From Sphingopyxis sp. (GTDB lineage: Bacteria; Pseudomonadota; Alphaproteobacteria; Sphingomonadales; Sphingomonadaceae): a stretch of 64,000 nucleotides of DNA. Made by a program: the position numbers and the translations under genes. Numbering within the stretch: position 1 is the first letter of the stretch; each line of letters starts with the position of its first letter. Below the pieces are notes generated by a model. That model was given only the letters and a program-made list of their open reading frames with translations. It ran no database searches and had not been told where the DNA came from. This document shows, one piece after another, positions 2,848-30,177 of the stretch. Location: NCBI GenBank assembly GCA_013821905.1, contig PNJO01000001.1:5989-69988 (forward strand). Reading direction: 5' to 3'.

Positions 2848-3723
2848 TCATTCGCCGACAGCGGCCGAATCCTCGTCGCGATCATCGCCGCCGCCCGCGC
2901 TGTTTGCGTCAGGCTGCGGCGTGAACCAGTCTTCGCCGATCGACACGGCTTCCACCTTGATCGTCTCGACACGGTATGGCGCGCAGGTGACGACATCGAC
3001 CGCCGCCGGATCGAACACCGCGATATTATAGCCCTCAGCATCGCCGAAATGGCTCTTGTACGCGATCGCATCATAGCCCCCTGCGCGAAAGAGCTCAGCG
3101 AGGATCTGCGTTGGCACATAATCGGCGGCGTCGTCCGAAACCGTCACCGGACGCGAAAAGGCGTTGTCGATATCGGTCCAAACCGCGGTCTTCTTCTCAG
3201 CAGCGCTCAGGGGTGGACCCCCCATCACATGCGAGAAGACCGGTCCCGCGAAGGACGACTGACCGTGGCCAAGCGAGAGATCGAGCGTGCGCAGATCGCG
3301 CAGCAGCCTGCAGCGTGCGACCGACACGTCGGCCCCGACCCACGGACGCACCTCCGACACGACGGTGTCGACCGTGCTTCCGAGATAGAGGACCGGGATA
3401 CCAGCCGGGTTGGCGCGGCCTTCCCGCGCGCGCCGCGGCAGCGGCTTCATACGGGCGGGACCATGGCCATAGATGGATTCGCCGGTCCAATTGCCATCGG
3501 CATCATGATGGTCTTCATAGACCACCCCGCGCTGCGCGCGAAAAAAGTGACGCCCCGCCTGCAGGACCTGGTCGCGCTGCGTGATCGTCGCGACGACGGT
3601 GTCCAGAAACGCCTGGATCGCTCCGCTCCAGATGTAGCGATTGCCATGCCGCACCCGCTCGGCGAAATCGGCATAGCTTCGCCACGATGCAAATTCGGGA
3701 ATGGCGGGATCGTCGAGCTCCAT
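2848..3723 (-). CDS. RES-domain protein (putative NAD+-targeting toxin/effector) with extra N-terminal region
   Basis: 291 aa. GRANPAGIPVLYLGSTVDTVVSEVRPW supplies the R and E, and DAIAYKSHFGDAEGYNIAVF supplies the S, in RES-domain order. No Xre/DUF2384 gene is adjacent. Confidence 0.8.
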   Translation of the reverse strand: MELDDPAIPEFASWRSYADFAERVRHGNRYIWSGAIQAFLDTVVATITQRDQVLQAGRHFFRAQRGVVYEDHHDADGNWTGESIYGHGPARMKPLPRRAREGRANPAGIPVLYLGSTVDTVVSEVRPWVGADVSVARCRLLRDLRTLDLSLGHGQSSFAGPVFSHVMGGPPLSAAEKKTAVWTDIDNAFSRPVTVSDDAADYVPTQILAELFRAGGYDAIAYKSHFGDAEGYNIAVFDPAAVDVVTCAPYRVETIKVEAVSIGEDWFTPQPDANSAGGGDDRDEDSAAVGE

Positions 3724-3945: not shown

Positions 3946-6900
3946 ATGACGATCGCGCCCATCGATCGCAGCATCAGCAAGGTCGGACCCGACAACGGAG
4001 CGTCGGCCCGTCTGTCCGAGCAACGCGCGCTGCCGCGCTACGTCCTCCTCGGCGAACCTGGCATCGGCAAATCGACCGCCTTCGCGCAAGAGGCCGCCGC
4101 CGCAGGCACGGTCCCGGTGCGCGCGGCCGATTTTGTCGAAGGAACCCGTCCGGCTGGTCCGACGCTCTTCATCGATGCGCTCGAGGAATATCGCATCGGC
4201 GAGGACGGGATCGACCGCCTGCGATCGCTCGTCCAGGCGCTCGCCGAGTCGGGGTATGCCGGTTGGCGGATCGCCTGCCGCGCCATCTCTCTCAAACCGC
4301 CCGATGCCCGTCTGCTGACGGAAAAGCTCGGCGCCTACGCCACGCTCCAGCTCGAGCTCCTCGACCGCTTCGAACAACGCGCGCTGCTCGCGGCGCGCGA
4401 TGAAGCCGATCCCTCGGGATTCATCGAGCGCATGCACGGCCTTGGCGCGGGCGCTTTGCTCGGCAACCCCGCGACACTGCTTCTCCTCAAGGACACGATC
4501 GACGCGGCCGCGGTGCCGCTCGACACGCGCGCCGCGCTGTTCGGCGAAGCGGCGCGCCAGATGAGCCATGAGGTCAATCCCGACCATCCCGAACGCGCCG
4601 ATCGTCCGCCGCCGCCGCTGATCGAGGCTGCCGCCGAAGCGGCGTCCCTCATCCTGCTGCTGTCGGGCCGCGACGATCTGTGGATGTATTCGACGAACCC
4701 GCCGCACCCGCATGTCGTTACGCGCGGCGACCTGCTGCCGGCGCGCATCGACACCGAGGCGCTACGCGCTGCGGTCGATACCGCAATGTTCAAGAGCGAC
4801 AGCGTGACCTTCCAGCCGAGCCACCGCGTCATCGCCGAGTTTCTCGCGGGCCGGGCGCTCGCGCGCGCCGTCGTTCCGCCCGATCCGGCGACCCCGGGGC
4901 TGCCGATTTATCGCGCGCTCGCCTTCTGCAACGGCGACAACGACCGCCCGGCGCCTGCGCTCACCGGTGTCTTTGCCTGGTTCGTCGCTGCGCTCGCGCA
5001 GTCGCGCTTGCCCGATCTGGCCGCGCCGCTTCTCGCTATCGACCCCGAGGCGGTTCTGTTGCACGGCGACGCGGCGGCGCTCCCCACCGCGCAGCGCCTA
5101 CGCCTCCTCGATCTTGTTGGCCGCGGCGATCCCTGGTTTCTTGCCGCGGTGCGCGGATCAAGCGCGGTCGGCGGCCTCGCGGGTGAGGACATCGCGCCCG
5201 CGCTTGCCACAATCCTCCTCGATCCTGCCGAAACCGTGCACCGCCAGACGATGGTCCTCGAAGCGCTGGCGACCGGCCGGCGCGTCTCCTCGCTCGCGGA
5301 CGTGATAGAGACGATCGCGGTGACGCCGTCGGCCGACCATTATCGCCGGCGCCGCGCGGTCGACGCCTGGCTCCATATCGTCGGCGACACCCCCGGCGGG
5401 CGGCGGCACCTGCTCGACGCGATCGCCGCGGAGACCCCGGAGACGGCGGCCGATCTTCGTGTCGAGCTCGCCGCCGGCCTGCTGCGCGCTGAAGCTATTG
5501 GCGTCGAGGAGATCCGCACGATCATCGAGGATTATGCGACGACCGGCGATCAGGTGATGGGCTATGCGCGTGTCCTCGGGGTCGCGCTCGCCGACCATCC
5601 GCTACCAGCCCTCTTCGACCGCCCGATCGCCGTGCCATCCGAGCGCGGCGTCGCGCGCTCGTTCGAAATTCGGATGCTTGTCTCGCGCGCCCTCGGGGCG
5701 ACGATCGAGAAAACCGCCGAGCTTGACGCGGACCGCCTGCTATCGTGGCTGTTCAACACCGGCATCGACGACGAGCAACAGGTCGAGAACAAGGTTCAGG
5801 GCGCGATCGCGCATTGGCTCGATCGGGACGCAGGGCATGAAAAGGCGCTGTTCACCGCGCTTCACGCCGCTGTCCAGCAAGGCGACCAGCGGCTGTGGCG
5901 CGCCGACATGGACCTTCGCCGCTTCTCGGGCCGCAAACCCTCCGAGGCGCTGCGCACCGCCGCGATCGAAGCGGTCGAGGCCGAGGCCGACCCTGCGGCG
6001 CTCGCCGCCGCCGCGCAGCTTGGCTATCAACTCGTCCAGCCGTTCGACGAGCATGAAGCGCTCTATTGGCGCCTTTTCTCCGCGATCGAGGGGCAGGACG
6101 CCGCCGCCGACTGGTTCCGGGCGATGACCCTCAGCGAAATTCCCGAATATCAGCGCAAGCGCGCTGGAAAGAGGAAGGACGAGAGGGCGGCGATCGAGGC
6201 GGCCAATGCGAAGGATCGCGCGCTGCTTTCTGGCGATATCGACGGTCTGCGCGACGGGTCGAAGGAAGCCTGGCTCGGTTATGCCGGCGACATCTACAAT
6301 GGCTATCGCGGCAACGACGCGCCGAGCGGCACGGAGCGGGTGACGAACTGGCTTGGCGGCGATGCGATCCTCATCGCGGCGATCCGGGAGGGGTGGCAGC
6401 GCTTGCTTGCCGCGCGGGCCGTATCGCCGCAACTCGTCGGCGCGGCGACGACGCGCACGCAATGGCCGACCTCGGAGCTGATGATCATCGCCTGGGCGGA
6501 GTGGGAGCTGCTCGACGGTCATGCGCTCGACCTCAATGTGCCGCTCGCGCTCCATCTCCTGACCCACTGCTACGCCGGCAACGACAAGGGCGACGAACTG
6601 CGCGAGATCGCGCTTCGTCGTCTCTATGCCGATCCGGCGGGCGCTGACGCGATCCGGGATTTCTGGGTCGGCGCCATCGAAGCGGGCGCCGACGATCTGC
6701 CGCAAGCCCAATATCTCGATCCCAATCAACCCGTTGTCGCCGGCGCCATTGCCGCGCTGCTGCAAAGCGGCATCGCGATGCCGCCTGCCGCAGCGCGCGA
6801 GGCGCTCGAGCTGGCCGCGGTCTCGATGCCTCCCGGCGAGCTTCTCGGTATCGCCGAAGCCGCGCTCGCCGCGCCCGATCCCAAGGGCGCGCGCACGACC

Positions 6901-8118
6901 TGGGCGCTCGCTGCCTTCGCGCTCGATCCCGAACGCCACGAAGGCCTGCTCGCGAGCGATTTGAGCGGCGCCGAAGGCGAGGCCCTGTTCGGGCGTCTCT
7001 GGGACGGGCATCACGGGTTCCTTCTCGCGGCCGCCGCCGACAAGACCGTCGCGCGATCGGAGGCGCTGATCCGGCACGTCGGACCGGGCCAACAGCCACG
7101 CCGCGGTGGGCAAAAAGTGCACAAACTGTCCGAACTGGTTGCAGGCGCGCTCGTCCAGCTCGCGCAGGCCGCGACGCTCGAAGCCAGCGAGGCGCTCGCC
7201 CGCCTGATCGCCGAACCCTCCTTGGCGCATTGGCGCGAGACGCTGCGCCACCACCAGGAGGAACAGAAACGCGTTTGCCGCGAAGCGCGCTTCCTGCCGC
7301 CGCCGCCCGAAGCGGTCGCTTCAGCGCTTGCGGCGGGGCCGCCTGCGAACGCTGCCGACCTGCGCGCGCTCGTGCACCATGTGATCGAGGAGCTGGCGCG
7401 CGATATCCGCGATGGCGACACGTCTCCGTGGCGAAGCTTCTGGAATCGCCCGACGCGGGGGACCAACGGGCCCAAGGTCGAAAATGATTGCCGCGATATC
7501 CTCACCGACCGGCTTCGCGACCGGCTCGAGCGCTATGGCATCCCGGTCAAGCGCATGACCACCGAGGCGCGCAGCGCGAACGATCGGCGCGCCGACATGT
7601 TCCTCATTGGCGATGGCGCGGCGCGGCTGCCGGTCGAGGTCAAGCGCCACTGGAACAAGGAGCTCTGGACGGCGATCGACGATCAGCTCGTCGATTATGC
7701 GCGCTCGGGCGACAGCAGCGGCCACGGGATCTATCTGATCTTCTGGTTCGGGACCCAATGGGCGCTGCCCAGGCTCCCCGATGGCGGGCCGCTTCCGGAG
7801 ACGCCGCAGGCGCTGCAGGCGCTGTTGATCGAGCGGATGCCCGCGACGCTTCGCGAGACCATCGCGGTCGTCGTGCTCGACGTCTCCGAGCCGCCGTCAC
7901 GCGACAAGCCCAAACCGAAAGCGAAAGGAAAACCGGAACCGAGGCTGAAACTTGGATCAACGGCGCGAGCTACGGCGATGCCCACCGCAAAGGTCGCGAA
8001 GGACGCAAAAGCGTCGGCAACGCCCGCCCGCCGGACGAAACCCGCCGCTGTGAAAGCGCCGGTCAAAAGCCCCCGGGACAGTGCGAAGACGGCCGCGCCT
8101 GCCACCCGGAAACGTTGA
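3946..8118 (+). CDS. giant STAND/NACHT-like P-loop NTPase with helical repeat region and C-terminal PD-(D/E)xK nuclease-fold module
   Basis: First ATG is at 3946 (ORF open from TTG 3874). The first ~250 aa carry Walker A GEPGIGKST, Walker-B-like TLFIDALEEY, RIACR and GNPATLLLL. About 900 aa of Ala/Leu-rich helical sequence follow. The C-terminal VENDCRDIL...RRADMFLIG...LPVEVKRHWN is an E/D/ExK nuclease pattern. The last ~70 aa are Lys/Ala/Pro-rich. Confidence 0.8.
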   Translation: MTIAPIDRSISKVGPDNGASARLSEQRALPRYVLLGEPGIGKSTAFAQEAAAAGTVPVRAADFVEGTRPAGPTLFIDALEEYRIGEDGIDRLRSLVQALAESGYAGWRIACRAISLKPPDARLLTEKLGAYATLQLELLDRFEQRALLAARDEADPSGFIERMHGLGAGALLGNPATLLLLKDTIDAAAVPLDTRAALFGEAARQMSHEVNPDHPERADRPPPPLIEAAAEAASLILLLSGRDDLWMYSTNPPHPHVVTRGDLLPARIDTEALRAAVDTAMFKSDSVTFQPSHRVIAEFLAGRALARAVVPPDPATPGLPIYRALAFCNGDNDRPAPALTGVFAWFVAALAQSRLPDLAAPLLAIDPEAVLLHGDAAALPTAQRLRLLDLVGRGDPWFLAAVRGSSAVGGLAGEDIAPALATILLDPAETVHRQTMVLEALATGRRVSSLADVIETIAVTPSADHYRRRRAVDAWLHIVGDTPGGRRHLLDAIAAETPETAADLRVELAAGLLRAEAIGVEEIRTIIEDYATTGDQVMGYARVLGVALADHPLPALFDRPIAVPSERGVARSFEIRMLVSRALGATIEKTAELDADRLLSWLFNTGIDDEQQVENKVQGAIAHWLDRDAGHEKALFTALHAAVQQGDQRLWRADMDLRRFSGRKPSEALRTAAIEAVEAEADPAALAAAAQLGYQLVQPFDEHEALYWRLFSAIEGQDAAADWFRAMTLSEIPEYQRKRAGKRKDERAAIEAANAKDRALLSGDIDGLRDGSKEAWLGYAGDIYNGYRGNDAPSGTERVTNWLGGDAILIAAIREGWQRLLAARAVSPQLVGAATTRTQWPTSELMIIAWAEWELLDGHALDLNVPLALHLLTHCYAGNDKGDELREIALRRLYADPAGADAIRDFWVGAIEAGADDLPQAQYLDPNQPVVAGAIAALLQSGIAMPPAAAREALELAAVSMPPGELLGIAEAALAAPDPKGARTTWALAAFALDPERHEGLLASDLSGAEGEALFGRLWDGHHGFLLAAAADKTVARSEALIRHVGPGQQPRRGGQKVHKLSELVAGALVQLAQAATLEASEALARLIAEPSLAHWRETLRHHQEEQKRVCREARFLPPPPEAVASALAAGPPANAADLRALVHHVIEELARDIRDGDTSPWRSFWNRPTRGTNGPKVENDCRDILTDRLRDRLERYGIPVKRMTTEARSANDRRADMFLIGDGAARLPVEVKRHWNKELWTAIDDQLVDYARSGDSSGHGIYLIFWFGTQWALPRLPDGGPLPETPQALQALLIERMPATLRETIAVVVLDVSEPPSRDKPKPKAKGKPEPRLKLGSTARATAMPTAKVAKDAKASATPARRTKPAAVKAPVKSPRDSAKTAAPATRKR

Positions 8119-8339: not shown

Positions 8340-9167
8340 ATGGCGGAGGGTATCTGCAAACTGACTGGCGAAACCGGCCCGCTCGTGAAGGCGCACATCC
8401 TGCCTAAGGCGCTCACGTCGCCAGCGGTCAAGGGACAGTCCTTCGCGCAGGCTGGTTCAAACTATGCACCGCGCAGGCGCCGCGATAGCTGGTATGATCC
8501 CGATCTCGTAACGCGCGCGGGCGAAGATATACTGGCGCGCTATGACAGCTGGGCGATCGAGGAATTGCGTCGGCACCGGCTGGTGTGGAGCGGCTGGGGC
8601 GGGGACCGGACACTCGCCGAGAACGAAATGCTCCTCGTACCGGGCATGGACGGCATCGGCTTTCGCAAGATCGATACGATCGACCAGCACCGCCTTCGCC
8701 TGTTTCTCCTCAGCATCTTATGGCGCGCCGCGGTCAGCAAGATGCACGAGTTCAGTGAAATTCGCATGCTCCCCAACGAGCGCCGCCGGCTGACGCATAT
8801 GGTGCGCAACGGCCGCGTCGAACCCTTGTCCTTCTTTCCCGTCATGCTGTTCCAGCTCTCGAGCCGCGGCGAAATTCATAATCTCAGCCCGATCGCGCAG
8901 CACAAGCGACGTGATGTGATGGATCCGGACAAAGGCACGATTCCGATCTTCCGCTTCTATTTCGACGGATTGATCGTCCATTTTCACCGCAAGGATCGCG
9001 CGAAAGACGTGGAAGCGATGGGCCCGATGATGGTGGGCCGCGGCAAGGAGCTTGTCGTTGGCCTCAGACCTTATGACGGATCGTGGCAGGAGGAAAATCT
9101 GGAAGTGTTAAAGGCCGAAGCCGAGGAGCGATGGCCCGGCAAGCTGGCGCGAATCTACAGCTCTTGA
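8340..9167 (+). CDS. hypothetical protein (N-terminal Cys...His-Ile-Leu-Pro motif, weakly HNH-like)
   Basis: 275-aa ORF with normal composition. It starts MAEGICKLTGETGPLVKAHILPKAL. It is convergent with the 1474-aa gene, leaving a 36-nt gap. No confident family assignment. Confidence 0.6.
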   Translation: MAEGICKLTGETGPLVKAHILPKALTSPAVKGQSFAQAGSNYAPRRRRDSWYDPDLVTRAGEDILARYDSWAIEELRRHRLVWSGWGGDRTLAENEMLLVPGMDGIGFRKIDTIDQHRLRLFLLSILWRAAVSKMHEFSEIRMLPNERRRLTHMVRNGRVEPLSFFPVMLFQLSSRGEIHNLSPIAQHKRRDVMDPDKGTIPIFRFYFDGLIVHFHRKDRAKDVEAMGPMMVGRGKELVVGLRPYDGSWQEENLEVLKAEAEERWPGKLARIYSS

Positions 9168-9203: not shown

Positions 9204-12200
9204 TTAATCGTCCGGCCGCCGTGCCCGGACCCGGACACGCTTGAGGTTCGATTTCGTGAGGTCGTTGAGGCGCCGTGCCAGTTGCTGCTCGGCAAAATAG
9301 GTGAGTTGTGGGTCGATATTGATCTGATCGATAATGCGCAGCGGGTCATCGCGCATATAGGTCGGCTCGGGTTCGCAGACATCGAGTGCAAACTCCATCG
9401 TTACGAGCGAGGGGCGCTGCCGAAACTGCTCGGCTGCGGCCGCCGCATCGAGCCATACCCGCCGCACTTCATAAAGCTTGTCGCGCAAGTGCCGGTCGCG
9501 TTCGGTTTCGAGAAGGCCGGTCAGCAGGTGCGGCCCATCGGGCATCCAGCCGATCGCTTCAACAAGAGCTTCCTTCCGCTCGGCATCCGCTGCCGCGAAC
9601 TGCGCCATCAGATAGGGCTTGATCGTCGTGTGACCGATCCGGAGCTCGACACAGGCGGCGCGATAGGCATATCGATCGCCGCTACCCGGGCGGTCCTCGT
9701 CGAGGGCATCGACCATGGCCTCGAGCGCGCGCGAATCGACCGCCCGCACTGCGCGCGCCATGCTGCGCCGGCGATCGGGGTAGCCGATCCAGGCTTGGCG
9801 AAACGCCTGCGTCGCGCGATCCTTGTCGATCCGCGCCAGCGTCGCGATCGCATCGGGCTGAACGTTGGTGATAAAGTCGGGCTCGGAAAAAGCGCGTTCG
9901 AGCAAGATGTTGAGCGCCTTCACCTCGTCCTTGTCGACGAGCTGCTCGACGAAATCATCGGCCGACCAGAATCCACGCCCGCCGACGCGTTCCCCGATGG
10001 CCCAAAGCGCCTCGCTCGCGCCACCCTGGCCAAGCCGAATGACAAGCGCCTCGGAATCATAACTCTTCCAGCTCTTCGCATTCCCGAGCCGAGCGAGATA
10101 GGTATCGAAGATCGCCCGTGCCTCGGGCGACTTGTCCTTAAGGAGCGTATTGAGCGCACCGAGGCGGCCCGCTTCGTCGTCGTCGGTCGCGAGCCGCGCA
10201 AGCGCCCTCGCGGTGAGGTCGGGATCGCTCGGGCCGGCGACCGCGGCGGCGTTGAGAAGCATCGCCTCGATTTTGCTCCCCGGAGCACGGCCTCTCAGGC
10301 TTTCGAGCAGAAAGGCCTGATCGCCGGCCTCTTCATATTCGGGGAGCAGGCGGAGCGCGAAGGCGACATCCTCCTCGGTGTCGCGCTTTGTCAACGCCAT
10401 CAGCCGGGGTCGCCACCGCTCCGGCTCCACGGCCAGCAGGACGCGCCACAGGCTGAGCCGCACTTCGGTGGCATCGCCTTCACTCGTCCCGACCGAAGTC
10501 AGTTCTTCGAGCCGCGCCACAACCGGCGGGGTTGGCGCGAAAATGCTCATGGCGATGCCAGCGCGCGACTTGCCAAGATCGTCGTGTGACAGCGTGTGGA
10601 GCACCAAGCTCTCGTAATCGCTGCCGCCGATCCGCCGCAGGATGCGCCGGACTGCTACCTGCCGTTCGTCACTGTTTCTGTTGACGTGATCCATGGCGCG
10701 AGCGCAAATCCGTGCCGCGAAATCGGAACCCCGATAGGCTTCGAATAACGGGTCATGGCGCGGGTCGAGCGTCAGGCTCCCGAGCAGCGCGACGAGCGAG
10801 GCAAAGGGATCGCGCCGACCCTCGCCAAAGGGCGCACCCATGATATCGGCGAGTTTCGCCAACAGGTGCGAAACGAGCGCGTCATCGACGCGGTCCTCGG
10901 CGCGGGAAAACAGCGCGGCAAGCTCCCCGCCGGTCGAATCGCCGGCCTCGCGCCACTGCTGGAGCGCGGTTCGCGTGCGATCTCCATCATAGTCGAACAG
11001 GCGGTCCATCCAGTCGCGACCTGGAGGGATAGGCGCGAGCGGTGGAAGTGCTTCGATATAGTCGAGCACCGCCCCTGGATCGATCTTGGCCCAGGTCGCG
11101 ACCGCCTTGCTGGCCCAAGCACGGTCCGAAAGCGCGTGCAGTGCCAGCACGCCGGCATCCCGTTCGTCGCCGAAGCGGTCGATACACTCGATCAGGACCG
11201 ACTGCCGTTCGGGGGCGATCACTCCGAAAAGCCGGTCGCGGGTTCGCGACCAGATGGCGTTGCCGCGCTCCACGTCGAGCGACTTCAGGAAATAGGCCGC
11301 AATGCGATATTCGTCGGCACTTCTCTCGCTCTCGACGAGATCGGTCAACCAGTCGGGGGCGTCGCAGACGATGGTGCGCAGCGCCGCATCCATGGCATCG
11401 AAGCGCTCCGAAACGTAGCGATCGCTCTCGCGCTCGGCCGACATCGTGCAATAGTCGGTCCAGAGTCTGTCGCGATGCGCATGGAAGGGCCAGCCATTTG
11501 CAAGGGTCAGCGCGACGTCGATGCTATGCTCGCTCGCATGCGCCCACAGCTCGTCGAGAAGGACATCGCGCTTGGCACGATCGTCGCCCATGACTTGGCG
11601 GAGAGCCGCGACGATGTGAATCGCCATATGGCCGTCGTCGGCGCCGAGGCGCTTGATGCGGGCCACCAGCACCGGAATGATACGAGGGCCGATCGTCGGC
11701 AAGAGCGACCGGTAGAGTTCCCAAGGCCCCGTCGATTCCTCGTCTTCAAACCCGGCGAGGAACGCCGCAATCTCGTCGGCGCGTGCAGCGTCGGCGCTGA
11801 TCTGCCACACCACGTCCATGAGGAGGAAGCCAAGGCCTGCGAGCGTATCCGAAGCCTTTTCGCGCGCGGCGTTCAGCGTCTTGACGATGTCGATCAGGTC
11901 GGCGGCACTGCGTAAACGCTGCCCGAAATCAAAGGCCAGGGCTTCGGAAATGGCCCAAGTGAGCAGCCGATCATGCGCAAAACTCCAGCGCGTCCCGAGG
12001 TTCGACAACCAACCCGCGGCAAGCAGTTCCTCCAGTTCACCGGTCGTGAAACCGAGCGCCGCCATCTCGTCGTCGGTGGTATAGGCGCGCCGCGTCTCGA
12101 CAAGGAGGCGCGCGAGCGCCTTCAGTCGAACCGTTGCATAGGCTCCGGCGCGATCCCGTGCGCGCGTCCAGAAGGCTTCGAGCACTCGGTACTCGTTCTG

Positions 12201-13628
12201 CGGGTCCCAGCCGGGCATCTCGAGCGCGAGCCGCGAATAAATGCCGCAGAGAACGGGGCGGTGAAGCATTGCGCGGATATTGCGCGGCACGAGACCCGCA
12301 TCGACGCCGCGCCGCTCGAGCGCCTTGAACAACTGGATCGGCGTGAAGTCGCCGACCCTGTGGCTCGGAAAGGCCGCGCTGTTGCCGTCCCCCGCCACGC
12401 CAACCGGATATTCCGCGACGAGCGCTAGCCCCGCGCCAAGCCCGCCTTCGAGGTCGATGGCGTCCAGATCGGCAGCATTGCGGCAGCCTTCCCAAAGGAT
12501 CGCGATCCGATCCGCGGTCCCGCATTGCCTTTGCCCTGTCGCGCCGAGCAACGGCACTTGCACGGGTTCCGCCAGTTGCAGACCGTCCACGGCAATGATG
12601 CGCTGCAGCTGGCGTTCGAGGTCGGCGCGAGATGATGCGCGCACCAGCACAGCAGGATGGCGCGCGTGCAGCAGCGCCGATGCGGTCCGGTAGAGGCTCC
12701 AAGATTTTCCCTGGCCCGAGGCGCCAACGACAATCGTGATCGCCGCCTCGGGAACAGCAAGAGGCTCGCGAACATCGAGCGCGGGATCATAGTCGCGCTT
12801 GCCAAGCGATGCCGCAAGCCTGTCGAGCATTCGGTTGAGCACCGTGTCGGCCGCCGCGTCGTCGCTACGCGCGAGACCGAGCCGGGCGCGGAGGTCGTCG
12901 ACAGATATGACGGCATCATTCGTCTTCGCGCGCCCGATTAGATAGCCAACCAGTTGGTCGAGCCTGTCCGTAGCCTTTTCGGAATATGCGAGCGATCGTT
13001 GAAGCCATGCCACAACGCCGGCCTGCGCGCGGGCGAGCGAGAGCGGCTCGGCAGCCACGAAGCGGGCGAAAAAGGAGGCAAGGTCGCGTTCGAACGTTTC
13101 GCTCGATGCGCCGGTGGCGCCATGGATGGGGCGGCAACGCGCGGCGATCGCGCGCATGTCGGGATCGTCGAGCCATGCTTGGCGCGGCCCGTTCCGTCCC
13201 GCCTCGACAAGGCGGCGCGCGAGCGCGGATGCGGGCCTGCTCACCCCGTTCGTTGTCTGAAGGATATAAGAGGAGCACGCGCGATCGCTATGCGCGCGGT
13301 AAAGATCAGGCAGGACCTTGTGGATGAGATCGCCGCGTCCCACCGCAGTGCTGCGATGCTTGAACTGATAGGCGATGCGTCCTTGGCCGGTCTGGATCGT
13401 GAGGTCCGCCCCCGCACGCGGTTCGATCACAGCAACGATCGTATCGGGGTCGACCTTGCTCCCCGATCGCGCGAAGTGCGCGCCGAGAAGCGCATCGAGC
13501 GAGCCTGCCAACTGGTAGAGAAAGCCATAGATTGCAGCCGACCCGGCTTGCGACAAGTGGGGTTCCGACTGCGAGCCCGCACCCGCCGCCGGAGCTTCGC
13601 TATTGCGTGATGCCAGCCCGCTGCTCAT
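9204..13628 (-). CDS. giant protein: N-terminal DUF4297/Cap4-like nuclease-fold domain, P-loop NTPase, C-terminal HEAT/ARM-type repeats
   Basis: 1474 aa, with RBS GAAGGTG upstream of ATG 13628. The N-terminus reads IYGFLYQ...VIEPRAGADL...IAYQFKH...YILQTTNG, the GxxYQ / D / QxK pattern I recall for DUF4297. Walker A VVGASGQGKSWS lies at aa ~301-309. The C-terminal ~900 aa contain repeated helical units such as RLGALNTLLKDKSPEARAIF and RAVRAVDSRALEAMVDALDEDR. Confidence 0.85.
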   Translation of the reverse strand: MSSGLASRNSEAPAAGAGSQSEPHLSQAGSAAIYGFLYQLAGSLDALLGAHFARSGSKVDPDTIVAVIEPRAGADLTIQTGQGRIAYQFKHRSTAVGRGDLIHKVLPDLYRAHSDRACSSYILQTTNGVSRPASALARRLVEAGRNGPRQAWLDDPDMRAIAARCRPIHGATGASSETFERDLASFFARFVAAEPLSLARAQAGVVAWLQRSLAYSEKATDRLDQLVGYLIGRAKTNDAVISVDDLRARLGLARSDDAAADTVLNRMLDRLAASLGKRDYDPALDVREPLAVPEAAITIVVGASGQGKSWSLYRTASALLHARHPAVLVRASSRADLERQLQRIIAVDGLQLAEPVQVPLLGATGQRQCGTADRIAILWEGCRNAADLDAIDLEGGLGAGLALVAEYPVGVAGDGNSAAFPSHRVGDFTPIQLFKALERRGVDAGLVPRNIRAMLHRPVLCGIYSRLALEMPGWDPQNEYRVLEAFWTRARDRAGAYATVRLKALARLLVETRRAYTTDDEMAALGFTTGELEELLAAGWLSNLGTRWSFAHDRLLTWAISEALAFDFGQRLRSAADLIDIVKTLNAAREKASDTLAGLGFLLMDVVWQISADAARADEIAAFLAGFEDEESTGPWELYRSLLPTIGPRIIPVLVARIKRLGADDGHMAIHIVAALRQVMGDDRAKRDVLLDELWAHASEHSIDVALTLANGWPFHAHRDRLWTDYCTMSAERESDRYVSERFDAMDAALRTIVCDAPDWLTDLVESERSADEYRIAAYFLKSLDVERGNAIWSRTRDRLFGVIAPERQSVLIECIDRFGDERDAGVLALHALSDRAWASKAVATWAKIDPGAVLDYIEALPPLAPIPPGRDWMDRLFDYDGDRTRTALQQWREAGDSTGGELAALFSRAEDRVDDALVSHLLAKLADIMGAPFGEGRRDPFASLVALLGSLTLDPRHDPLFEAYRGSDFAARICARAMDHVNRNSDERQVAVRRILRRIGGSDYESLVLHTLSHDDLGKSRAGIAMSIFAPTPPVVARLEELTSVGTSEGDATEVRLSLWRVLLAVEPERWRPRLMALTKRDTEEDVAFALRLLPEYEEAGDQAFLLESLRGRAPGSKIEAMLLNAAAVAGPSDPDLTARALARLATDDDEAGRLGALNTLLKDKSPEARAIFDTYLARLGNAKSWKSYDSEALVIRLGQGGASEALWAIGERVGGRGFWSADDFVEQLVDKDEVKALNILLERAFSEPDFITNVQPDAIATLARIDKDRATQAFRQAWIGYPDRRRSMARAVRAVDSRALEAMVDALDEDRPGSGDRYAYRAACVELRIGHTTIKPYLMAQFAAADAERKEALVEAIGWMPDGPHLLTGLLETERDRHLRDKLYEVRRVWLDAAAAAEQFRQRPSLVTMEFALDVCEPEPTYMRDDPLRIIDQINIDPQLTYFAEQQLARRLNDLTKSNLKRVRVRARRPDD

Positions 13629-13663: not shown

Positions 13664-14266
13664 TCAGCCATCCTCGCCCGGTTCGGCGCCTGGCGGCGGC
13701 TTAAGAGCGACGAGCGCGTCGATTGCGTCACGGTCCGCCGCACAAAAGAGGATCGGAACCATTGCCACTTGCAGATGCCGCGCGAGGCCGAGCCGATGAT
13801 TGCCGCCCCGCACGCTGAGCCCCTTCGCCTGCGGCATGAGTACCGGCGGCGTTACCGATCCGCCGCTTTCGAGATGCGCGACGAGCGTTGCGGTCTTGTT
13901 GCGATAGCGCTTCGAGAAAGGCGTTCCGATCCGGCGCGAGTACTCGACAAGGACCTCGTGCAACAGGTCACTCTCTACCCAGCCTATCTCGATATCGGGA
14001 AAGGTGCGGGCGAAGGATTCAGCATCATGGTCATCCATCGACCGATAGAAATGCGCGGGCTCCAAGTCCCAATGCAGCGCGACACGCGGCCATTGCTCAT
14101 CGGGCAGATGGAAGATGTCCATGCCGCGTCGAAGCCGATGCTGGTTGGCGATTGCTTCATCGAGCCCGATCTCGCCTTGGGCCACCCGCAACGCAGCTTG
14201 CATGGAAAGCCCGTGGCGTGCCGCGAGTTCAGCGGCTTTGGCCAAAATCGCCTTCACGTCACACAC
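13664..14266 (-). CDS. small protein with C-terminal ParB/Srx-like (GxHR) domain
   Basis: 200 aa. TPPVLMPQAKGLSVRGGNHRLGLARHLQVAMVPILF resembles the ParB N-terminal/sulfiredoxin-fold core (DGxHR). The GTG start overlaps the stop of the upstream gene (GTGTGTGA). The stop lies 35 nt before the giant gene's start. Confidence 0.7.
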   Translation of the reverse strand: MCDVKAILAKAAELAARHGLSMQAALRVAQGEIGLDEAIANQHRLRRGMDIFHLPDEQWPRVALHWDLEPAHFYRSMDDHDAESFARTFPDIEIGWVESDLLHEVLVEYSRRIGTPFSKRYRNKTATLVAHLESGGSVTPPVLMPQAKGLSVRGGNHRLGLARHLQVAMVPILFCAADRDAIDALVALKPPPGAEPGEDG

Positions 14267-15170
14267 CGCTGGCTTTCGGTGCGACGATGCAGATCACGCT
14301 CTGCAGGTCGGCCGTCGCCCCCGACAGATCGGCCTCGAGCTGGTCGGGATGTTTCAGCACCCCGTCGGGATCGTAAACCAGGGCAATCATATGGTTGACA
14401 TTGGGATTGGCACCATAATGCGCCCGATCGACGATCAGCTCTTCCAGGATTTTCTTGTCCTTGCCGGGGCGTGCAAATTTGAGCTCGATCATCAGCCGTT
14501 GCGGCTTGAGATAGAATTCGCAGCGCGTACTGCTCCCGCCGAGCGACGGGTTCGGCTCTTCGATCCGGATGTCCGGGAAGAAGCCCGCGAGGATCGCGTG
14601 GAACAGATATTGGCAGTCCCATTCGTCCTGGAGCGTCCAGATCGTCCCGCCATGGGGATGATAGCGAAGCGCCCGCGCCGAGGCATGGAAACGGCGCGCG
14701 AGCCGCTCGACGATCTGAAGGTCGCTTGTCTGCGCCGGGTTGAACTTCGGATCAGGGCGTAACGCGATGACATGGTCGACCGCCGCAAGCGTATGGTTCA
14801 CCTGCTTCAAGGTAGAGTGTATGATGTCGGGATAGCCGATCCCGGTGCTGCCCGCGTGAAAGTGCTCGCCCGCCGCCACCACATCGTGGCGCATCTTGTC
14901 GACGAAAGCGCGATAATCTTCGAGCGCGTCCGCGACCGCCGCCGGCGAGCCGTAATTCGAACCGGGAATCGCCCGGTCGGCGACGAAGTCCTGCGTATAT
15001 TCCTTCAGGCTGAGAATGACGCTTTTGACCGTGGAAAACCATGCTGCGCCTTGCGCCTGCGGGCCATCCTCCCGCATCTCCGCCATGAGATTGTCGAAGT
15101 CCTGACGGGCCGCCCGCCGCGCCTTGTAAAGATAGTCCAGCGCATCGACCGCCCATTGCATCTCGTCCAA
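14259..15170 (-). CDS. protein with helical N-terminal half and C-terminal PD-(D/E)xK nuclease-fold module
   Basis: 303 aa. TTG start is preceded by GGGAGA with a 7-nt spacer; an in-frame ATG sits 3 codons later. The C-terminal QDEWDCQYLFHAIL...STRCEFYLKPQRLMIELKF is an E / (D->E) / ExK pattern. First gene of a three-gene - strand operon. Confidence 0.7.
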   Translation of the reverse strand: MDEMQWAVDALDYLYKARRAARQDFDNLMAEMREDGPQAQGAAWFSTVKSVILSLKEYTQDFVADRAIPGSNYGSPAAVADALEDYRAFVDKMRHDVVAAGEHFHAGSTGIGYPDIIHSTLKQVNHTLAAVDHVIALRPDPKFNPAQTSDLQIVERLARRFHASARALRYHPHGGTIWTLQDEWDCQYLFHAILAGFFPDIRIEEPNPSLGGSSTRCEFYLKPQRLMIELKFARPGKDKKILEELIVDRAHYGANPNVNHMIALVYDPDGVLKHPDQLEADLSGATADLQSVICIVAPKASGV

Positions 15171-15247
15171 GCGTCATTCTCCCATTTGATCCGTTATGCG
15201 GCCTTCCCAGCTATTCTATCGGGCACGCCGCCGCTATATATTCTCGC

Positions 15248-16363
15248 ATGATCGACCGCGCGCTCGACGCTATAACCCTGTCCGATATCGAGGATCTTGT
15301 CCGCTTCAAACGCAGCGAAGGAAGGACACTCGATTTCAAGGCGACGTTCCCCGATGCAGGTCACAAAGGCGTGCGCGATTTCCTCGCCGATGTCACCGCC
15401 TTCGCAAACAGCGGCGGCGGCGACCTCGTGATCGGTGTAACCGAGGACGACAATGGCGACGCCGCCGAGGTGCTCGGGATATCGCGCGACAATCTCGACG
15501 AGAATTTGCGGCGCATCGAGGATCAACTTCGCAGCTGCGTCGATCCGCGCGTGCCCGACTTTCGCATTCATCGCGTCGATCTGCCGGACGGCAAGGTTGT
15601 TCTTGTCCTCCGCGTCGGCGCGAGCCTGATCGCGCCGCACCGCGTGACCTTCGATCGCAGCAGCCGTTTCTACCGCCGCACCAACAGGGCGAATTCCGAT
15701 ATGAGCACCGCCGAGATCCGCCAAGCTTTCGCCGCATCCGAAGACACCCCGCGGAAAATCCGCGACCTCCACAGGCAGGCGCTTGCCGCTGCGGAAGGCG
15801 CCGATATGCCTGTTCGCTTGCGCGGCGAGCCGGCCGCGATTCTCACGATCGCGCCGCTCTCCGTGCTCCGCGAGGCGCGAAGCCTTCCCGTCGGACGCGA
15901 CGATGTCGTTTTTCCGCCGCGCATGACCGGCGCGATCAATACCGTCGTCGGACTCGACAGTGTAATTGTTCATTCTCCCGTCGATGACGGGTCCGGCGCC
16001 GTCCGAACTTTCTCGATCAACCATCGCCGGGGTTATATCGACCATGCTTGGACGATCGGGCACGAGAAGGATGGAACGACTTACGTCTGGCAGGACAATT
16101 TCGTCGTCAAGATCGAGGAGGCCGCGCGCAGCACGCTCGCGCGGCTTCGAGCTCACGGGATTGAGGGTCCGTGGATCGTTATGGCGACGCTCATCCGTAT
16201 CAAGGGTGCGCGTCTGTTCCTCGGCGATCACCAACTCAGCGAGCCTGCGTGGCAAGATCCCGCCTTTCTCGGCGAAATCATCGACGACCGGCTCGACAAG
16301 GACGCCCTCAAGCCTTTCGTCGACGGATTTTGGCGCGTCTTCGGCGTCGATGCGGCCCAATGA
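15248..16363 (+). CDS. AlbA_2 / Schlafen-like (divergent AAA) domain protein
   Basis: 371 aa. EGRTLDFKATFP...VRDFLADVTAFANSGGGDLVIGVTEDDNGDA matches the ExxxLEFK...AFANxxGGxLxIGV signature of the AlbA_2 domain. Divergent from the operon at 15170, with a 77-bp intergenic region. Confidence 0.8.
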   Translation: MIDRALDAITLSDIEDLVRFKRSEGRTLDFKATFPDAGHKGVRDFLADVTAFANSGGGDLVIGVTEDDNGDAAEVLGISRDNLDENLRRIEDQLRSCVDPRVPDFRIHRVDLPDGKVVLVLRVGASLIAPHRVTFDRSSRFYRRTNRANSDMSTAEIRQAFAASEDTPRKIRDLHRQALAAAEGADMPVRLRGEPAAILTIAPLSVLREARSLPVGRDDVVFPPRMTGAINTVVGLDSVIVHSPVDDGSGAVRTFSINHRRGYIDHAWTIGHEKDGTTYVWQDNFVVKIEEAARSTLARLRAHGIEGPWIVMATLIRIKGARLFLGDHQLSEPAWQDPAFLGEIIDDRLDKDALKPFVDGFWRVFGVDAAQ

Positions 16364-16446
16364 AGGTTTTTGTCGCTCCCGCGTCGCAGATGGCGGCAGC
16401 GCATCCTTCGCTATGGTCGGCATCCGACCGCTGCTAGGCTCATCGC

Positions 16447-17630
16447 ATGGACGAAGAGAATCTTATTTTCCTCAGCTATGCGAGCCCCGATCGCGATGCC
16501 GTCATGGGCTTCCACGCGTCGCTACAAGCTGCAGGCTACAATGTCTGGATGGACCGCTTTCGCCTCAAGGGCGGCCAAGCATGGGACGTCGAGGTCAAGC
16601 GTGCGATGCGTAAGGCAACGATCATCGTCGTGTTCCTCTCCTCGCACTCGGTCGATCGCCGCGGCTATGCGCAACGCGAAGTGAAGATCGCGCTGGAACA
16701 GCTCAAGGACCGCCTCGTCGACGACATTTATCTGATCCCGGTGATGCTCGAGCCCGGTCTGGCGGTTCCTGACCAACTCGCGGACATTCAGGCGGTCGGT
16801 CTGGACGGTCAGGACGCCGGTACCGCGCTCAAGGACGCGATCGACGAGCAGCTCTCGCGCCTCGGCGCCAAGATCGCGCAGGTGCAGGCGGACGCCAATA
16901 TCCAGTGGACCGACAGCGTCTTCGAGGACAAATGGGATGGACTGCCCGGCTATGATGTGAGCTACCATCTGCCGCGCTTCACCTCGCGCGACTATCCGGC
17001 GTCGCGGAAATCACCGACGTCCTGCGCGGCTGGCTCCAAGGCCAGGTCATGGGCCAGCGAACCGTCAAGTTCGACCAGTCGCCTGACCTCTACAGCTTCG
17101 CCGAAACCCGTTTCAGCCGCCAGAACAGCTGGGAGGCCTCCTATGGCGAACCGCAGATCCGGGGACGCGTCCTCAGCATCGCCTTCTCAATCTGGTGGTA
17201 CGGCGCCAAGGCGGCCCATCCGAACCACCAGTATCAGACCTTCGCCTTCACGCTCGATCCGGTGACCCGGATCAGTGAACTTCGCGAGATCTTTGTCGAT
17301 CCCGATGCAGGGTTCAAGCTCGTCCAAAGCGAGTCTCGGCGTCTCCTTCTCGCTCTCGATCTGGATGGCGACATGCTCCCTCCCGATCAGATCGCGAGCG
17401 GAACAGAGACCTGGGACGACTTCAGCGATTTTCTGTTCACTGCGGACGGTCTCGACATATTCTTCCCACCATATCAGGTCGCCGCCTACGCCTATGGGCC
17501 GCAGCATGTCCGGATCGCCTACGACCTCCTTACCGACCTTCTTCTCCCGCTCTATGCGCAGCTGCTCGACGCGACCTATCTGGGTGCCGCCCATCGTAAT
17601 CCGCCATGGGACGACACAGCGTCCGCCTGA
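16447..17630 (+). pseudogene. TIR-domain protein fused to DUF4163/DUF3298 (RsiV-like) domain, reading frame broken near 16996-17001
   Basis: ORF 16447..17265 begins with a TIR pattern: LIFLSYASPDRD...GYNVWMDRFRLKGGQAW...ATIIVVFLSSHSV...YAQREVKIAL. After ...YHLPRFTSRDYP it runs into low-complexity text. A frame shifted by one nucleotide continues GVAEITDVLRGWLQGQVMGQRTV and then shows DUF3298-like motifs (WWYGAKAAHPNHQYQTFAFTLDP, GLDIFFPPYQVAAYAYGPQHVRIAY) up to 17630. Confidence 0.7.
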
Positions 17631-17657
17631 TCGCGTACAGTCAGGGAGGAATAACCG

Positions 17658-19487: not shown

Positions 19488-20246
19488 TCACCGCGCCGCG
19501 ACCTTTCGCATGATCTCGAAATAGCGCGCATTGATTTCACCCTCCTCGTCGCCGATCGGGGCACTTTGGCGATAAAGATAGGAAAGCTTCGGAAAGTAGG
19601 GTGCGCGCTGGCTCGTCACACGAAACTGCAGATCGGCGGCATGCCGCTTGGTCTTCTCGACGACGAAGGTCGCGAGCGTGATCCTGTGCCCGTCGACAAT
19701 ATCCCAGACCTGTCCCTCGATACGCCCGTCGCGCAACTGCCCCTCAACTTCCAGCCGCGAGAAGATATGATATTGCCGTAACCCCTCGCTGATGATCTCC
19801 CCCTGAGCCGCCCCGTCATAGGTGCGTAGCGCGAGTTTCACCGGCTCGCCTTCGACCGATGGATCAAGACCTTCGGGCGAGCTGGCCTCGTCGACTGCCC
19901 CGCTCTCGCTCGACCAAACGCCGGTAAACGCCTTCGAGACATATATTTCGTCCGCCGCGTCCCGCGCGAGCTTCGGTGCCTCCGAGCGAAAGCTGTTGAT
20001 CACTGCCGGGAATTGCAGTGCGCCGAACACCGCTGCCGCCGCCCAGCCCGAAAAGGCGAAGAGCGGCCTCTGGTAAAACGCTGCGGGTTGCGCAGGCGCG
20101 GGTGGAGCGCCATCGCCCACCGGCCGTTTGCGCTTGGGTTTGGAATAGGGTTTGATAGATACGTCCTTCGGCGCAAAGTTAATCGAACGAAGAACAACTC
20201 CGCCAGTAAATAATTCTGGCGTCGGGCAAGGAGAAGCGCCCTTCAT
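19488..20246 (-). CDS. hypothetical protein with one predicted TM helix
   Basis: Ordinary composition. Hydrophobic stretch RPLFAFSGWAAAAVFGALQFPAVI, followed by a beta-rich-looking domain. Start uncertain (ATG 20267 or 20246). ATG 20246 shares the palindromic CATG with the start of the divergent RES gene. Confidence 0.5.
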   Translation of the reverse strand: MKGASPCPTPELFTGGVVLRSINFAPKDVSIKPYSKPKRKRPVGDGAPPAPAQPAAFYQRPLFAFSGWAAAAVFGALQFPAVINSFRSEAPKLARDAADEIYVSKAFTGVWSSESGAVDEASSPEGLDPSVEGEPVKLALRTYDGAAQGEIISEGLRQYHIFSRLEVEGQLRDGRIEGQVWDIVDGHRITLATFVVEKTKRHAADLQFRVTSQRAPYFPKLSYLYRQSAPIGDEEGEINARYFEIMRKVAAR

Positions 20247-21357
20247 GTACGCCAGGATTTCGCGCACTTATCTGAAACTGCAGGCCCGCTTGCGAGGCGA
20301 CCATCGATCCCCCCTTTGCGCCGAATGCTTTCAGGATCATGGGCTGCGCAGGATGGCGCGCGCTGTGCGTGGCAAGTCGGTCCGGTGTCGCCAATGCGGG
20401 GCGGTCTCGGTGCACGGCCTCTCCAGAGAGCAGCTCCACGACCTCTGCCAGACCTTCTTCGTTCGCGGAAGCATCATTGCCGCCGACTATGGCGCCTCTC
20501 CCCTCATTCAGTTCAATGACCTGCGGGAAAACGAACTCGACGTGGAGGGCGAGATCAATGCCGACATCGCTCTCCTGCACAAGACGATCGGGATCGGATT
20601 CTTCCACTATGGGCCGCGCCTCTGGATGCTCGGAGCGGTTGAACCGCTCCAGAAACTTCGAACCAGGCGGGGGCGCCGGCCCGTCATCAACCGGATCCTT
20701 CGCACCTATCCTGTGCGCGAACTCACGCCCCGCGACGAATTCTACAGGGTGCGCAAGGCCCCGGCCGAAGCGTCGGACGCGGCCCAATATGACGCGCCGC
20801 CGGATGAATTTTGCGGGTCGGGACGGCTCGATTCGCCGAGCAATTCCATGCTCTACGGCTCGCAGGATATCGAAATCTGCGTGCACGAATGCCGGTTCAG
20901 TGCGGGCGACGAACTTTACGTCGCGACGCTCGCCCCGACCCGGACGCTTCGCCTTGTCGACCTCACCGAAATATTGGAGGAGACGGGAACCGAATTCGAC
21001 AGCCTCGACCTCACGGTACTGATGCTCTTCCTGGCTGGCAGCCACGCCTATGAGATCACGCGCGAGCTTGCCGCTTCCGCGCGCGCCAAAGGGTTCGACG
21101 GCATCATCTACCCATCCTATTTCAGCATGCTGCGCACCGGCGGCATGCCGTTCGAAACGATGTTCGGTATCGCGATGCGCCGCATTCGCGAGACACGCAG
21201 CTATGAGAAGGCCAAGGTCATCGGAAATCTCGCCTTGTTCGGCCACCCGATCGCTGACGGAAATGTCCAAGTCGCCGGAATCAATCGACTGGTGATCAGC
21301 AAGGTGGCCTATGCGGTGACATTCGGTCCGGTGATGTCACCGGAACCAAGCGGGTGA
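20245..21357 (+). CDS. RES-domain protein with N-terminal CxxC...CxxC zinc-ribbon-like region
   Basis: ATG 20245 is preceded by AAGGAG. CAECFQ-x18-CRQCG lies near the N-terminus. GSGRLDSPSNSMLYGSQDIEICVHECR supplies the R and E; GFDGIIYPSYFS...NLALFG supplies the S. Confidence 0.8.
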   Translation: MYARISRTYLKLQARLRGDHRSPLCAECFQDHGLRRMARAVRGKSVRCRQCGAVSVHGLSREQLHDLCQTFFVRGSIIAADYGASPLIQFNDLRENELDVEGEINADIALLHKTIGIGFFHYGPRLWMLGAVEPLQKLRTRRGRRPVINRILRTYPVRELTPRDEFYRVRKAPAEASDAAQYDAPPDEFCGSGRLDSPSNSMLYGSQDIEICVHECRFSAGDELYVATLAPTRTLRLVDLTEILEETGTEFDSLDLTVLMLFLAGSHAYEITRELAASARAKGFDGIIYPSYFSMLRTGGMPFETMFGIAMRRIRETRSYEKAKVIGNLALFGHPIADGNVQVAGINRLVISKVAYAVTFGPVMSPEPSG

Positions 21358-29974: not shown

Positions 29975-30147
29975 GATGCCGATACCTTCCTGGAGAAAGT
30001 TATGGGCCGCAGCATTCACCTCGCAGGTGAATACGTTATCGCGCGCCCATAACTTTCTCCTGCCTTTCTGCTCTGTGGTCGCGGGCCAAAGGACCGCGGA
30101 GTACCATTCGGATTTGAGGGAGATGCCCAGCGAGGCCGACAAAAGGA

Positions 30148-30177
30148 GAGGGCGGTTGCGTGCGCGCAACCGCCCTC
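30148..30177 (-). terminator. 13-bp-stem hairpin downstream of the ParB-family gene
   Basis: GAGGGCGGTTGCG (30148-30160) pairs with CGCAACCGCCCTC (30165-30177) around a 4-nt loop. On the - strand it is followed by TCCTTTTGTC. It shares its core with the palindrome at 27697. Confidence 0.55.

Follow-up and report, generated by a model that had tools for sequence, protein, structure and literature searches.

A complete gene for a large NACHT protein

We analyzed 64,000 nucleotides of DNA from Sphingopyxis sp. (contig PNJO01000001.1, positions 5,989 to 69,988), referred to below as the window, and focused on a gene on its forward strand that encodes a protein of 1390 amino acids. This protein belongs, as a divergent member, to a named family of antiphage proteins, the EruA (Erebus/Avs10) family, and a domain order like its own has been reported before. 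The gene is an uninterrupted open reading frame (ORF) at window positions 3946-8118, with an ATG at 3946 and a stop codon at 8116-8118. From N- to C-terminus, its product comprises a NACHT nucleoside triphosphatase (NTPase), a helical sensor, a three-helix linker, a C-terminal PD-(D/E)xK-type module, and a Lys/Ala/Pro-rich tail. The features of the gene, each with the evidence behind it, are as follows.

3946..8118, + strand: complete gene for an EruA/Avs10-family NACHT antiphage protein, 1390 amino acids (ORF, translation, NCBIfam profile NF058535, 98 full-length homologs)
4021..4995, + strand: NACHT module (NBD-HD1-WHD), residues ~26-350 (AlphaFold2 model, Foldseek, conserved residues)
4051..4077, + strand: Walker A motif (P-loop) GEPGIGKST, residues 36-44 (G39, G41 and K42 invariant in 42 sequences)
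4165..4188, + strand: Walker B motif with the NACHT signature D[GAS]hDE, LFIDALEE, residues 74-81 (42-sequence alignment)
4996..7095, + strand: fast-evolving alpha-helical sensor region, residues ~351-1050 (identity profile, hhalign, partial model)
7096..7341, + strand: conserved helical linker, residues ~1051-1132 (AlphaFold2 model of residues 1085-1320, hhalign)
7342..7890, + strand: predicted C-terminal PD-(D/E)xK-type nuclease-like effector module, residues ~1133-1315 (conservation, AlphaFold2 model, weak fold matches)
7480..7698, + strand: predicted catalytic core E1179, E1207, D1217, E1231-x-K1233, Q1247-xxx-Y1251 (invariance in alignments)
7891..8115, + strand: lineage-specific Lys/Ala/Pro-rich basic tail, residues 1316-1390 (translation, alignment gaps)

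A longer ORF, starting with a TTG at 3874, is also open. We retained the ATG at 3946 because it is the point from which the N-termini of 41 homologs align, with a gap fraction of 0.05 over residues 1-25. A scan for promoters and terminators returned nothing useful. Calls of residue invariance below are based on an alignment of 42 sequences unless another alignment is named, and AlphaFold2 models were made for residues 1-460 and 1085-1320.

A sequence-only reading of this locus had proposed an ORF of ~1390 codons at 3946-8118 with a set of quoted motifs, arranged as an NTPase, then sensor repeats, then a nuclease-like effector, then a basic tail. The translation and the alignment bear this out: all of the quoted motifs are present and conserved, and the domain map, the NACHT fold, and the conserved residues agree on the order, with the sensor lying between the NTPase and the C-terminal module.

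The N-terminal NTPase has a NACHT fold

The model of residues 1-460, built from the 42-sequence alignment, was confident (pLDDT 89.8, pTM 0.85). When this model was compared to the PDB using Foldseek, the top 48 matches were all NACHT modules of animal NLRs, including NOD2, NLRP3, NLRC4, NAIP5, NLRP9 and others, with E-values down to 3.8e-8 and a probability of 1.0. The invariant Walker A residues G39, G41, and K42 are also conserved in EruA from Citrobacter, and in the Walker B motif D77 is invariant and E81 is conserved in at least 90% of sequences. The motif D[GAS]hDE, defined as a NACHT signature by Kibby et al. 2022, reads D77-A-L-E80-E81 here. Further downstream, C111-R112, which includes the sensor arginine R112, and the winged-helix histidine H293, within HRxIAEFLAG, are invariant or nearly so, and P175 of the GNP motif (residues 173-175) is at least 90% conserved. 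On the basis of the modeled fold, we assign the NTPase to the NACHT clade of STAND NTPases, as the sequence-only reading had suggested for the N-terminus. Because only ~25 residues precede the NTPase, the protein has no N-terminal effector.

The C-terminal module resembles PD-(D/E)xK nucleases

No part of the protein is more strongly conserved than the C-terminal module, whose mean identity to homologs is 46%. Eleven of its residues are invariant: E1179, E1207, D1217, E1231, K1233, Q1247, Y1251, G1261, W1267, G1269, and D1312. In an alignment of 32 domain sequences drawn from several phyla, ten of these are again invariant, the exception being G1269, which is conserved there in at least 90% of sequences. 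The stretch ENDCRD carries E1179, RRADMFL carries D1217, and VEVKRHW carries both E1231 and K1233. Conservation of catalytic residues among homologs, on which the sequence-only reading had staked its nuclease, extends for E/D/ExK/QxxxY to ~170 homologs from many phyla, and E1179, E1207, D1217, E1231, K1233, Q1247, and Y1251 are kept in EruA proteins that score above the NCBIfam cut-off. Going by what is established about the superfamily, the layout E...D...ExK...QxxxY is that of RecB/HsdR/Cas4-type PD-(D/E)xK nucleases.

The model of residues 1085-1320 (pLDDT 89.9) has a core with alpha-beta-beta-alpha-beta-alpha-beta topology. E1179 starts a long helix, D1217 precedes a strand, the ExK motif lies in the next strand, and Q1247xxxY1251 lies in the helix that follows. 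Of the alpha-beta-beta-beta-alpha-beta core that is canonical for the superfamily, the model does not clearly show the first beta-strand, and confidence is low in the loop preceding D1217. The best fold matches in the PDB, which were not significant, were PspGI, a restriction enzyme (E 0.013), and Can2, a CRISPR ancillary nuclease (E 0.037), and the best match in BFVD was also weak (E 4.6e-3). Among the weak viral fold matches were proteins annotated as 'endonuclease', the N-termini of bunyavirus and arenavirus L proteins, DUF2726, RecU, and 'PD-(D/E)XK nuclease'. The Foldseek query retained the three linker helices, which brought in noise from AAA+ lid domains. At the sequence level, Pfam HSDR_N, which represents the nuclease domain in the R subunits of type I restriction systems, matched 4 of the 32 domain sequences below threshold (best E 0.027), spanning exactly RAD...ExK...QxxxY; no other Pfam family matched more than two of them.

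Of the nuclease-fold module claimed in the sequence-only reading, the motifs are confirmed, and a significant structural match did not emerge. The predicted fold follows from the motifs, the modeled topology, and these sub-threshold matches, and taken together they make it very probable that the module is a catalytic PD-(D/E)xK nuclease. The invariance of E...D...ExK...QxxxY across the family also provides a concrete effector hypothesis for Erebus, namely a RecB/HsdR-like nuclease.

The basic tail that follows is real, as had been noted, although it is gapped, and so absent, in 73% of homologs. Its length is polymorphic: compared to a twin contig that is 99.8% identical to the window, it differs by a 6-nt indel, with an additional KP in the twin. 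The relative P0118 carries a similar tail. We speculate that the tail, which is histone-H1-like, adds non-specific DNA affinity in its sub-lineage.

A fast-evolving sensor is joined to the nuclease-like module by a conserved linker

Between the NACHT and C-terminal modules lies the least conserved part of the protein. Mean identity to homologs is 21-31% in the sensor, compared to 40-44% in the NACHT module and the 46% of the C-terminal module, and this steep contrast between sensor and effector documents what appears, from the sequences, to be an arms-race signature. Residues 351-460 are all-helical in the AlphaFold2 model. The description of this region as ~900 residues of helical repeats is therefore borne out as to helicity where the region was modeled, and its length is shorter, at ~700-780 residues. 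In the linker, the model shows three long helices from residue 1085 onward, at residues 7-31, 37-44, and 52-72 of the modeled fragment.

Because pairwise identity between distant sensors is near random, we tested the sensor separately at the profile level, using hhalign to compare the 46 closest relatives of the protein with 86 distant relatives that include Citrobacter EruA. The sensor slice, residues 461-1050, aligned with a probability of 99.9 and an E-value of 7.5e-36 over 580 columns; a reversed-sequence control reached 1.8%. The same comparison gave E-values of 9e-78 for the NACHT module, 1.4e-64 for the nuclease module, and 4.4e-22 for the linker, with reversed-sequence controls for NACHT and nuclease below 7% probability. 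By profile homology, rather than by the structural clustering used by Lee et al. (PMC13581612), the sensor is predicted to be of the same type as that of Avs10.

A divergent member of the EruA family

The protein matched the NCBIfam profile NF058535, 'NACHT domain-containing antiphage protein EruA', with 704 bits (E 5.5e-211). The match forms a single stretch from residue 26 to 1314 of the protein and from position 21 to 1318 of the 1318-position profile, with 1298 of the 1318 positions collinear. Scores against this profile are continuous across the family, rising from 704 bits here to 772-777 for plasmid proteins from Pantoea and Vibrio, 878 for an Acidimicrobiales protein, and 978 for the relative P0088, with P0082 (1106 bits) and the Citrobacter youngae protein (1109.5 bits) passing the profile's cut-off. 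In a joint alignment, P0082 and Citrobacter EruA share with our protein the Walker A and B, CR, NP, and HRxIAE motifs and, in the C-terminal module, E/E/RAD/ExK/QxxxY/GIYLxFWFG/DVS, in the same order and with the same spacing. Pairwise identity to Citrobacter EruA is 29% in the NACHT module, 11% in the sensor, 24% in the linker, and 37% in the nuclease module; across the EruA proteins that pass the cut-off, it is ~26-29% overall and 11-17% in the sensor. The end-to-end profile match, the shared motifs, and the homologous sensor together identify the protein as a full-length, collinear, divergent member of the EruA family.

A second profile, NF058534 (HyoA), gave a partial match of 94 bits (E 5.4e-27) over residues 128-728; in relatives, this match extends into the C-terminal module. 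Homolog searches returned 98 proteins of 1250-1440 amino acids, mostly alphaproteobacterial and annotated either as 'hypothetical' or with Pfam PF28130 (DUF8371). Our protein belongs to an alphaproteobacterial sub-clade with members in Sphingomonas, Caulobacter, and Bradyrhizobium.

A literature search on the gene names 'EruA' and 'HyoA' found nothing relevant. The systems Erebus and Hypnos were reportedly introduced by van den Berg et al. in 2024. Lee et al. (bioRxiv January 2026; Nature July 2026, PMC13581612) group Erebus, Hypnos, and bNACHT64 as Avs10, for which they show activation by the phage major capsid protein (MCP) and loss of cell death when the effector is mutated or deleted. The sequence-only reading had matched the protein to no named system and treated its domain order as non-canonical, implying novelty. 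That implication does not hold: the protein falls in the named, experimentally validated Erebus/Avs10 family, and Kibby et al. 2022 (Supplementary Discussion) described bacterial NACHT proteins whose effectors follow the repeat region at the very C-terminal end, and proposed that the curved repeat region brings the effector back to its usual spatial position. Because such C-terminal effectors have been described, the 'inverted' order is a known variant, and the order NTPase-sensor-nuclease is the fixed architecture of the EruA family. The finding leaves the picture of STAND immunity unchanged. What it exposes is an annotation gap, in that Pfam-A and PADLOC give no match, a newer Pfam entry offers only DUF8371, and NCBIfam scores the protein below its cut-off, yet the assignment to Erebus/Avs10 is confident.

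Homologs are widespread and lie on mobile elements

Scanning one genome per species, we found at least 155 relatives, and in nearly all of the best 80 the match spans residues ~6-1316. Their hosts belong to Alpha-, Beta-, and Gammaproteobacteria (Citrobacter and Pseudomonas among them), Acidimicrobiales, Dehalococcoidia, Rhodothermales, Gemmatimonadota, Latescibacterota, Acidobacteriota, Nitrospinota, and other groups. We also searched a library of 1.84 billion proteins with the C-terminal module, using a single fragment from the window as query, and, at E <= 1e-3, found it in 1983 proteins that each represent a 50%-identity cluster. Among the best-scoring 150 of these 1983, the module was the last globular domain in every one. 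Shorter 'proteins' bearing the module start inside linker sequence of the family and look like truncated gene calls.

The genomic contexts of homologs were mobile or defensive and varied between loci. The family is present on 23 plasmids by tblastn, and some homologs are on conjugative plasmids. In Sphingomonas sanguinis, the homolog adjoins an integrase within an element resembling an integrative and conjugative element, with ArdC, HEPN, TraD, MobA, BrxR, and SbcCD genes. In Bradyrhizobium, it lies on an island with a resolvase, PIN-TPR-GreABC and TIR genes, an integrase, and insertion sequence elements. Another homolog is found in a prophage- or satellite-like element, and yet another beside integrases and an AAA_5/VWA cluster. 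Homologs thus sit outside housekeeping operons, beside integrases, relaxases, prophage genes, and defense-type genes.

We found no conserved partner gene: the neighbors in the window are absent beside homologs at six other loci examined by tblastn and gene tables. The gene order of the window recurs only in the 99.8%-identical twin contig, which is too close to be informative. In the absence of recurring neighbors, the gene behaves as a single-gene system, and this, along with the mobile and defense contexts, supports the earlier proposal of a single-protein defense sensor. None of the three findings that the sequence-only reading had named as refuting was observed.

Proteins of the PIN-TPR-GreABC type, of 1327 and 302 amino acids (L004 5718-9701 and L003 14247-15155), lie beside or near homologs at two unrelated loci. 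This co-location may be chance within defense islands.

Comparison with known systems

The closest counterpart is EruA (NF058535)/Avs10, with which the protein shares a length of ~1320-1400 amino acids, single-gene organization, a NACHT module at the extreme N-terminus, a long helical sensor, a three-helix linker, and a C-terminal E/D/ExK/QxxxY module. It differs in its profile score, in belonging to an alphaproteobacterial sub-clade, and in its extra Lys/Ala/Pro-rich tail. HyoA/Hypnos is likewise a NACHT antiphage protein with a partial profile match, but that match is much weaker than the one to EruA, and the HyoA profile is longer (1430 positions), with ~60-70 extra positions at the N-terminus.

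Canonical Avs proteins (Avs1-4 and Avs7; Gao et al. 2022; Lee et al. 2026) also combine a STAND NTPase and a large helical sensor with a PD-(D/E)xK effector, which in our protein is predicted, and likely share the path from phage-protein binding through oligomerization to nuclease activation. Their Cap4- or Mrr-type effector, however, is N-terminal and their NTPase central, whereas our protein has nothing before the NTPase, whose Walker A motif begins at residue 36, and carries RecB/HsdR-like motifs in a C-terminal module at 1133-1315. The bNACHT proteins of Kibby et al. 2022/2023 share the D[GAS]hDE signature and include members with an effector at the extreme C-terminus, but the dissected examples bNACHT01 and bNACHT25 have short C-terminal sensors or N-terminal Mrr-like restriction endonuclease effectors. 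Finally, animal NLRs (NOD2, NLRC4, NLRP3, NAIP5) share the NBD-HD1-WHD fold and the winged-helix histidine, H293 here, at only ~12% sequence identity, and differ in having LRR sensors, N-terminal CARD or PYD adaptors, and no fused C-terminal enzyme.

A probable stand-alone antiphage receptor

The gene probably specifies a pattern-recognition receptor that acts alone against phages, belongs to the Erebus (EruA)/Avs10 family of NACHT-clade STAND NTPases, and is carried on a mobilizable defense island. By analogy with characterized Avs and NLR proteins, the protein would be an autoinhibited, ADP-bound monomer in the uninfected cell. Upon infection, the sensor would wrap around a conserved phage protein, which for the tested enterobacterial Avs10 proteins is the HK97-fold MCP. 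Binding would lift autoinhibition and allow the NACHT module to bind ATP and oligomerize, and the curved helical sensor would place the C-terminal nuclease modules where the N-terminal effectors of canonical Avs proteins sit. The clustered nuclease modules would then become active and cut DNA indiscriminately, resulting in abortive infection.

Several results weigh against this reading. At 704 bits, the protein misses the 1000-bit equivalog cut-off of NF058535, so the NCBI pipeline would not name it EruA. This cut-off is an annotation threshold for same function and not a structural feature; we therefore class the protein as divergent within the family, and not among the EruA equivalogs. We infer that EruA and HyoA are the Erebus and Hypnos proteins from their names, descriptions, adjacent accessions, and mutual homology and from the grouping of Lee et al. 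As late as March 2026, a preprint spoke of an 'unclear mechanism of action' for Erebus. Pfam-A gave only chance-level matches across the whole 1390-residue protein, and PADLOC-DB 2.0 (2023), a check that the sequence-only reading had proposed, gave no match to it. Foldseek returned nothing at E <= 0.001 for the C-terminal model against the PDB and BFVD. The alignment of the C-terminal domain had no match among PDB sequences either, where phmmer and profile searches with the protein, the family alignment, and the domain alignment yielded P-loop noise or nothing. Lastly, transfer of the MCP trigger is weakly founded because the sensor is only 11% identical to that of Citrobacter EruA. Reasoning from the tested Avs10 proteins, we give an even chance to the MCP being the trigger for this clade.

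The alternative that survives best retains the family and the effector logic and changes the trigger, such that the alphaproteobacterial sub-lineage would sense a different phage molecule, or a host molecule, instead of the MCP. This would fit the drop from 29% identity in NACHT and 37% in the nuclease to 11% in the sensor, as well as a BLASTP comparison with the Pantoea homolog in which only the NACHT and C-terminal parts align. It would also fit the work of Lee et al. (PMC13581612), in which Avs families are defined by sensor cluster and the tested Avs10 representatives were of the Enterobacteriaceae type only. The sensors are nonetheless homologous over their whole length at the profile level (99.9 over 580 columns) and equal in length, and Avs sensors can recognize folds across highly divergent targets (Lee et al., PMC13581612). 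We consider a different trigger possible and hold it tentatively. Somewhat more doubtful is a stronger version, in which the sub-clade would be a functionally distinct Erebus/Avs10 offshoot that combines a phage-protein trigger other than the MCP with a tail tethering the nuclease to DNA. If true, the offshoot would offer a convenient system for studying how STAND oligomers switch on an effector located beyond the sensor.

A second alternative concerns the effector itself. The C-terminal module could be a degenerate, non-catalytic restriction-endonuclease-like fold that serves in DNA binding, oligomerization, or ligand capping, with toxicity arising in some other way. The lack of a significant Foldseek, PDB, or Pfam match, the first beta-strand that is not clearly modeled, and the low-confidence loop before D1217 speak for such a fold. 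However, the acidic and lysine residues are invariant across phyla, follow the canonical order, and sit on the secondary-structure elements where they would be expected, the module is the most conserved in a protein with no other candidate effector domain, and effector mutation abolishes the toxicity of Avs10 (Lee et al., PMC13581612). A non-catalytic module therefore appears improbable, and catalysis by a PD-(D/E)xK nuclease remains our preferred reading.

We rejected an obligate multi-gene system, in which the protein would depend on the upstream RES gene, the downstream 275-residue gene, or the convergent 1474-residue P-loop protein. The shared gene order in the twin contig and the tight packing of the island would suit it, but the twin is too close to inform, these neighbors are missing beside homologs at the six other loci, 221 bp separate the stop codon of the NACHT gene from the next gene, and no partner is conserved, making such a system very unlikely. 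We also rejected a housekeeping STAND signaling or regulatory ATPase of the MalT/AfsR type, which is hardly credible even though STAND clades mix defense and non-defense members, given the mobile-element and defense-island, plasmid, and prophage contexts, the match to an antiphage NCBIfam model, and a nuclease-type effector in place of a DNA-binding regulator domain.

The gene lies in a putative mobilizable island

In the window, the gene is surrounded by the following neighbors.

2848-3723, - strand: RES-domain (toxin-type) protein, 291 amino acids (E 4.9e-19)
8340-9167, + strand: 275-amino-acid ORF between two giant genes (no Pfam, NCBIfam or PADLOC match)
9204-13628, - strand: 1474-amino-acid P-loop protein, convergent neighbor (no Pfam, NCBIfam or PADLOC match)
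14259-17637: defense-type gene cluster including a DpnII-MboI-type restriction endonuclease-like gene (PADLOC Aga_Helical-REase, E 4.7e-25)
15248-16363, + strand: SLFN_AlbA_2 gene
16447-17630, + strand: TIR_2+DUF3298 gene (PADLOC Aga_TIR-PNTD, E 1.3e-19)
20152-21357, + strand: second RES-domain (toxin-type) protein, 401 amino acids (E 5.9e-14)
27734-30169, - strand: MobA/MobL relaxase

Window positions ~1-31500 look like a mobilizable defense island, and the family assignment also flags the first ~31 kb in this way. GC content is 0.59-0.61 between 16 and 26 kb, compared to ~0.65 elsewhere in the window, and from ~32 kb onward the genes are of catabolic, transport, and housekeeping types (AtuA, an AMP-binding enzyme, and a TonB-dependent receptor). 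No tRNA was detected in the window, and no left boundary of the island was identified within it. A database look-up of a 606-residue downstream ORF returned no record.

The 275-residue ORF, whose N-terminus reads CKLTGETGPLVKAHILPKAL, is identical in the twin contig and was not found by tblastn beside homologs of the NACHT gene at the six other loci. The 1474-residue protein has only 8 homologs among 5.8 billion protein clusters. Invariant among them are G35 and Q39 (GFxYQ), E69, D75, Q88-x-K90, a Walker A motif at S304-K308, and H552-D-R, and its C-terminal ~185 residues match HEAT-like alphaRep repeats (E 1e-6). By eye, the residues from G35 to K90 resemble the nuclease motif of Cap4/DUF4297. 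From these sequence features, the protein looks like a rare STAND- or Avs-like protein with the canonical order of effector, NTPase, and sensor, and it may be more novel than the NACHT gene itself.

The restriction endonuclease-like and TIR_2 genes resemble Argonaute-associated effector types, and no Argonaute was seen nearby. The TIR_2+DUF3298 gene is a single 394-residue ORF in the twin contig (L001) and two overlapping ORFs in the window (16447-17265 and 17049-17630). Offsets in the blastn alignment imply a 1-nt indel between the window and its twin, in addition to the 6-nt indel in the tail. Judging from the ORF layout, this 1-nt indel probably lies in the TIR gene, where one of the two copies would carry either a frameshift or a sequencing error.

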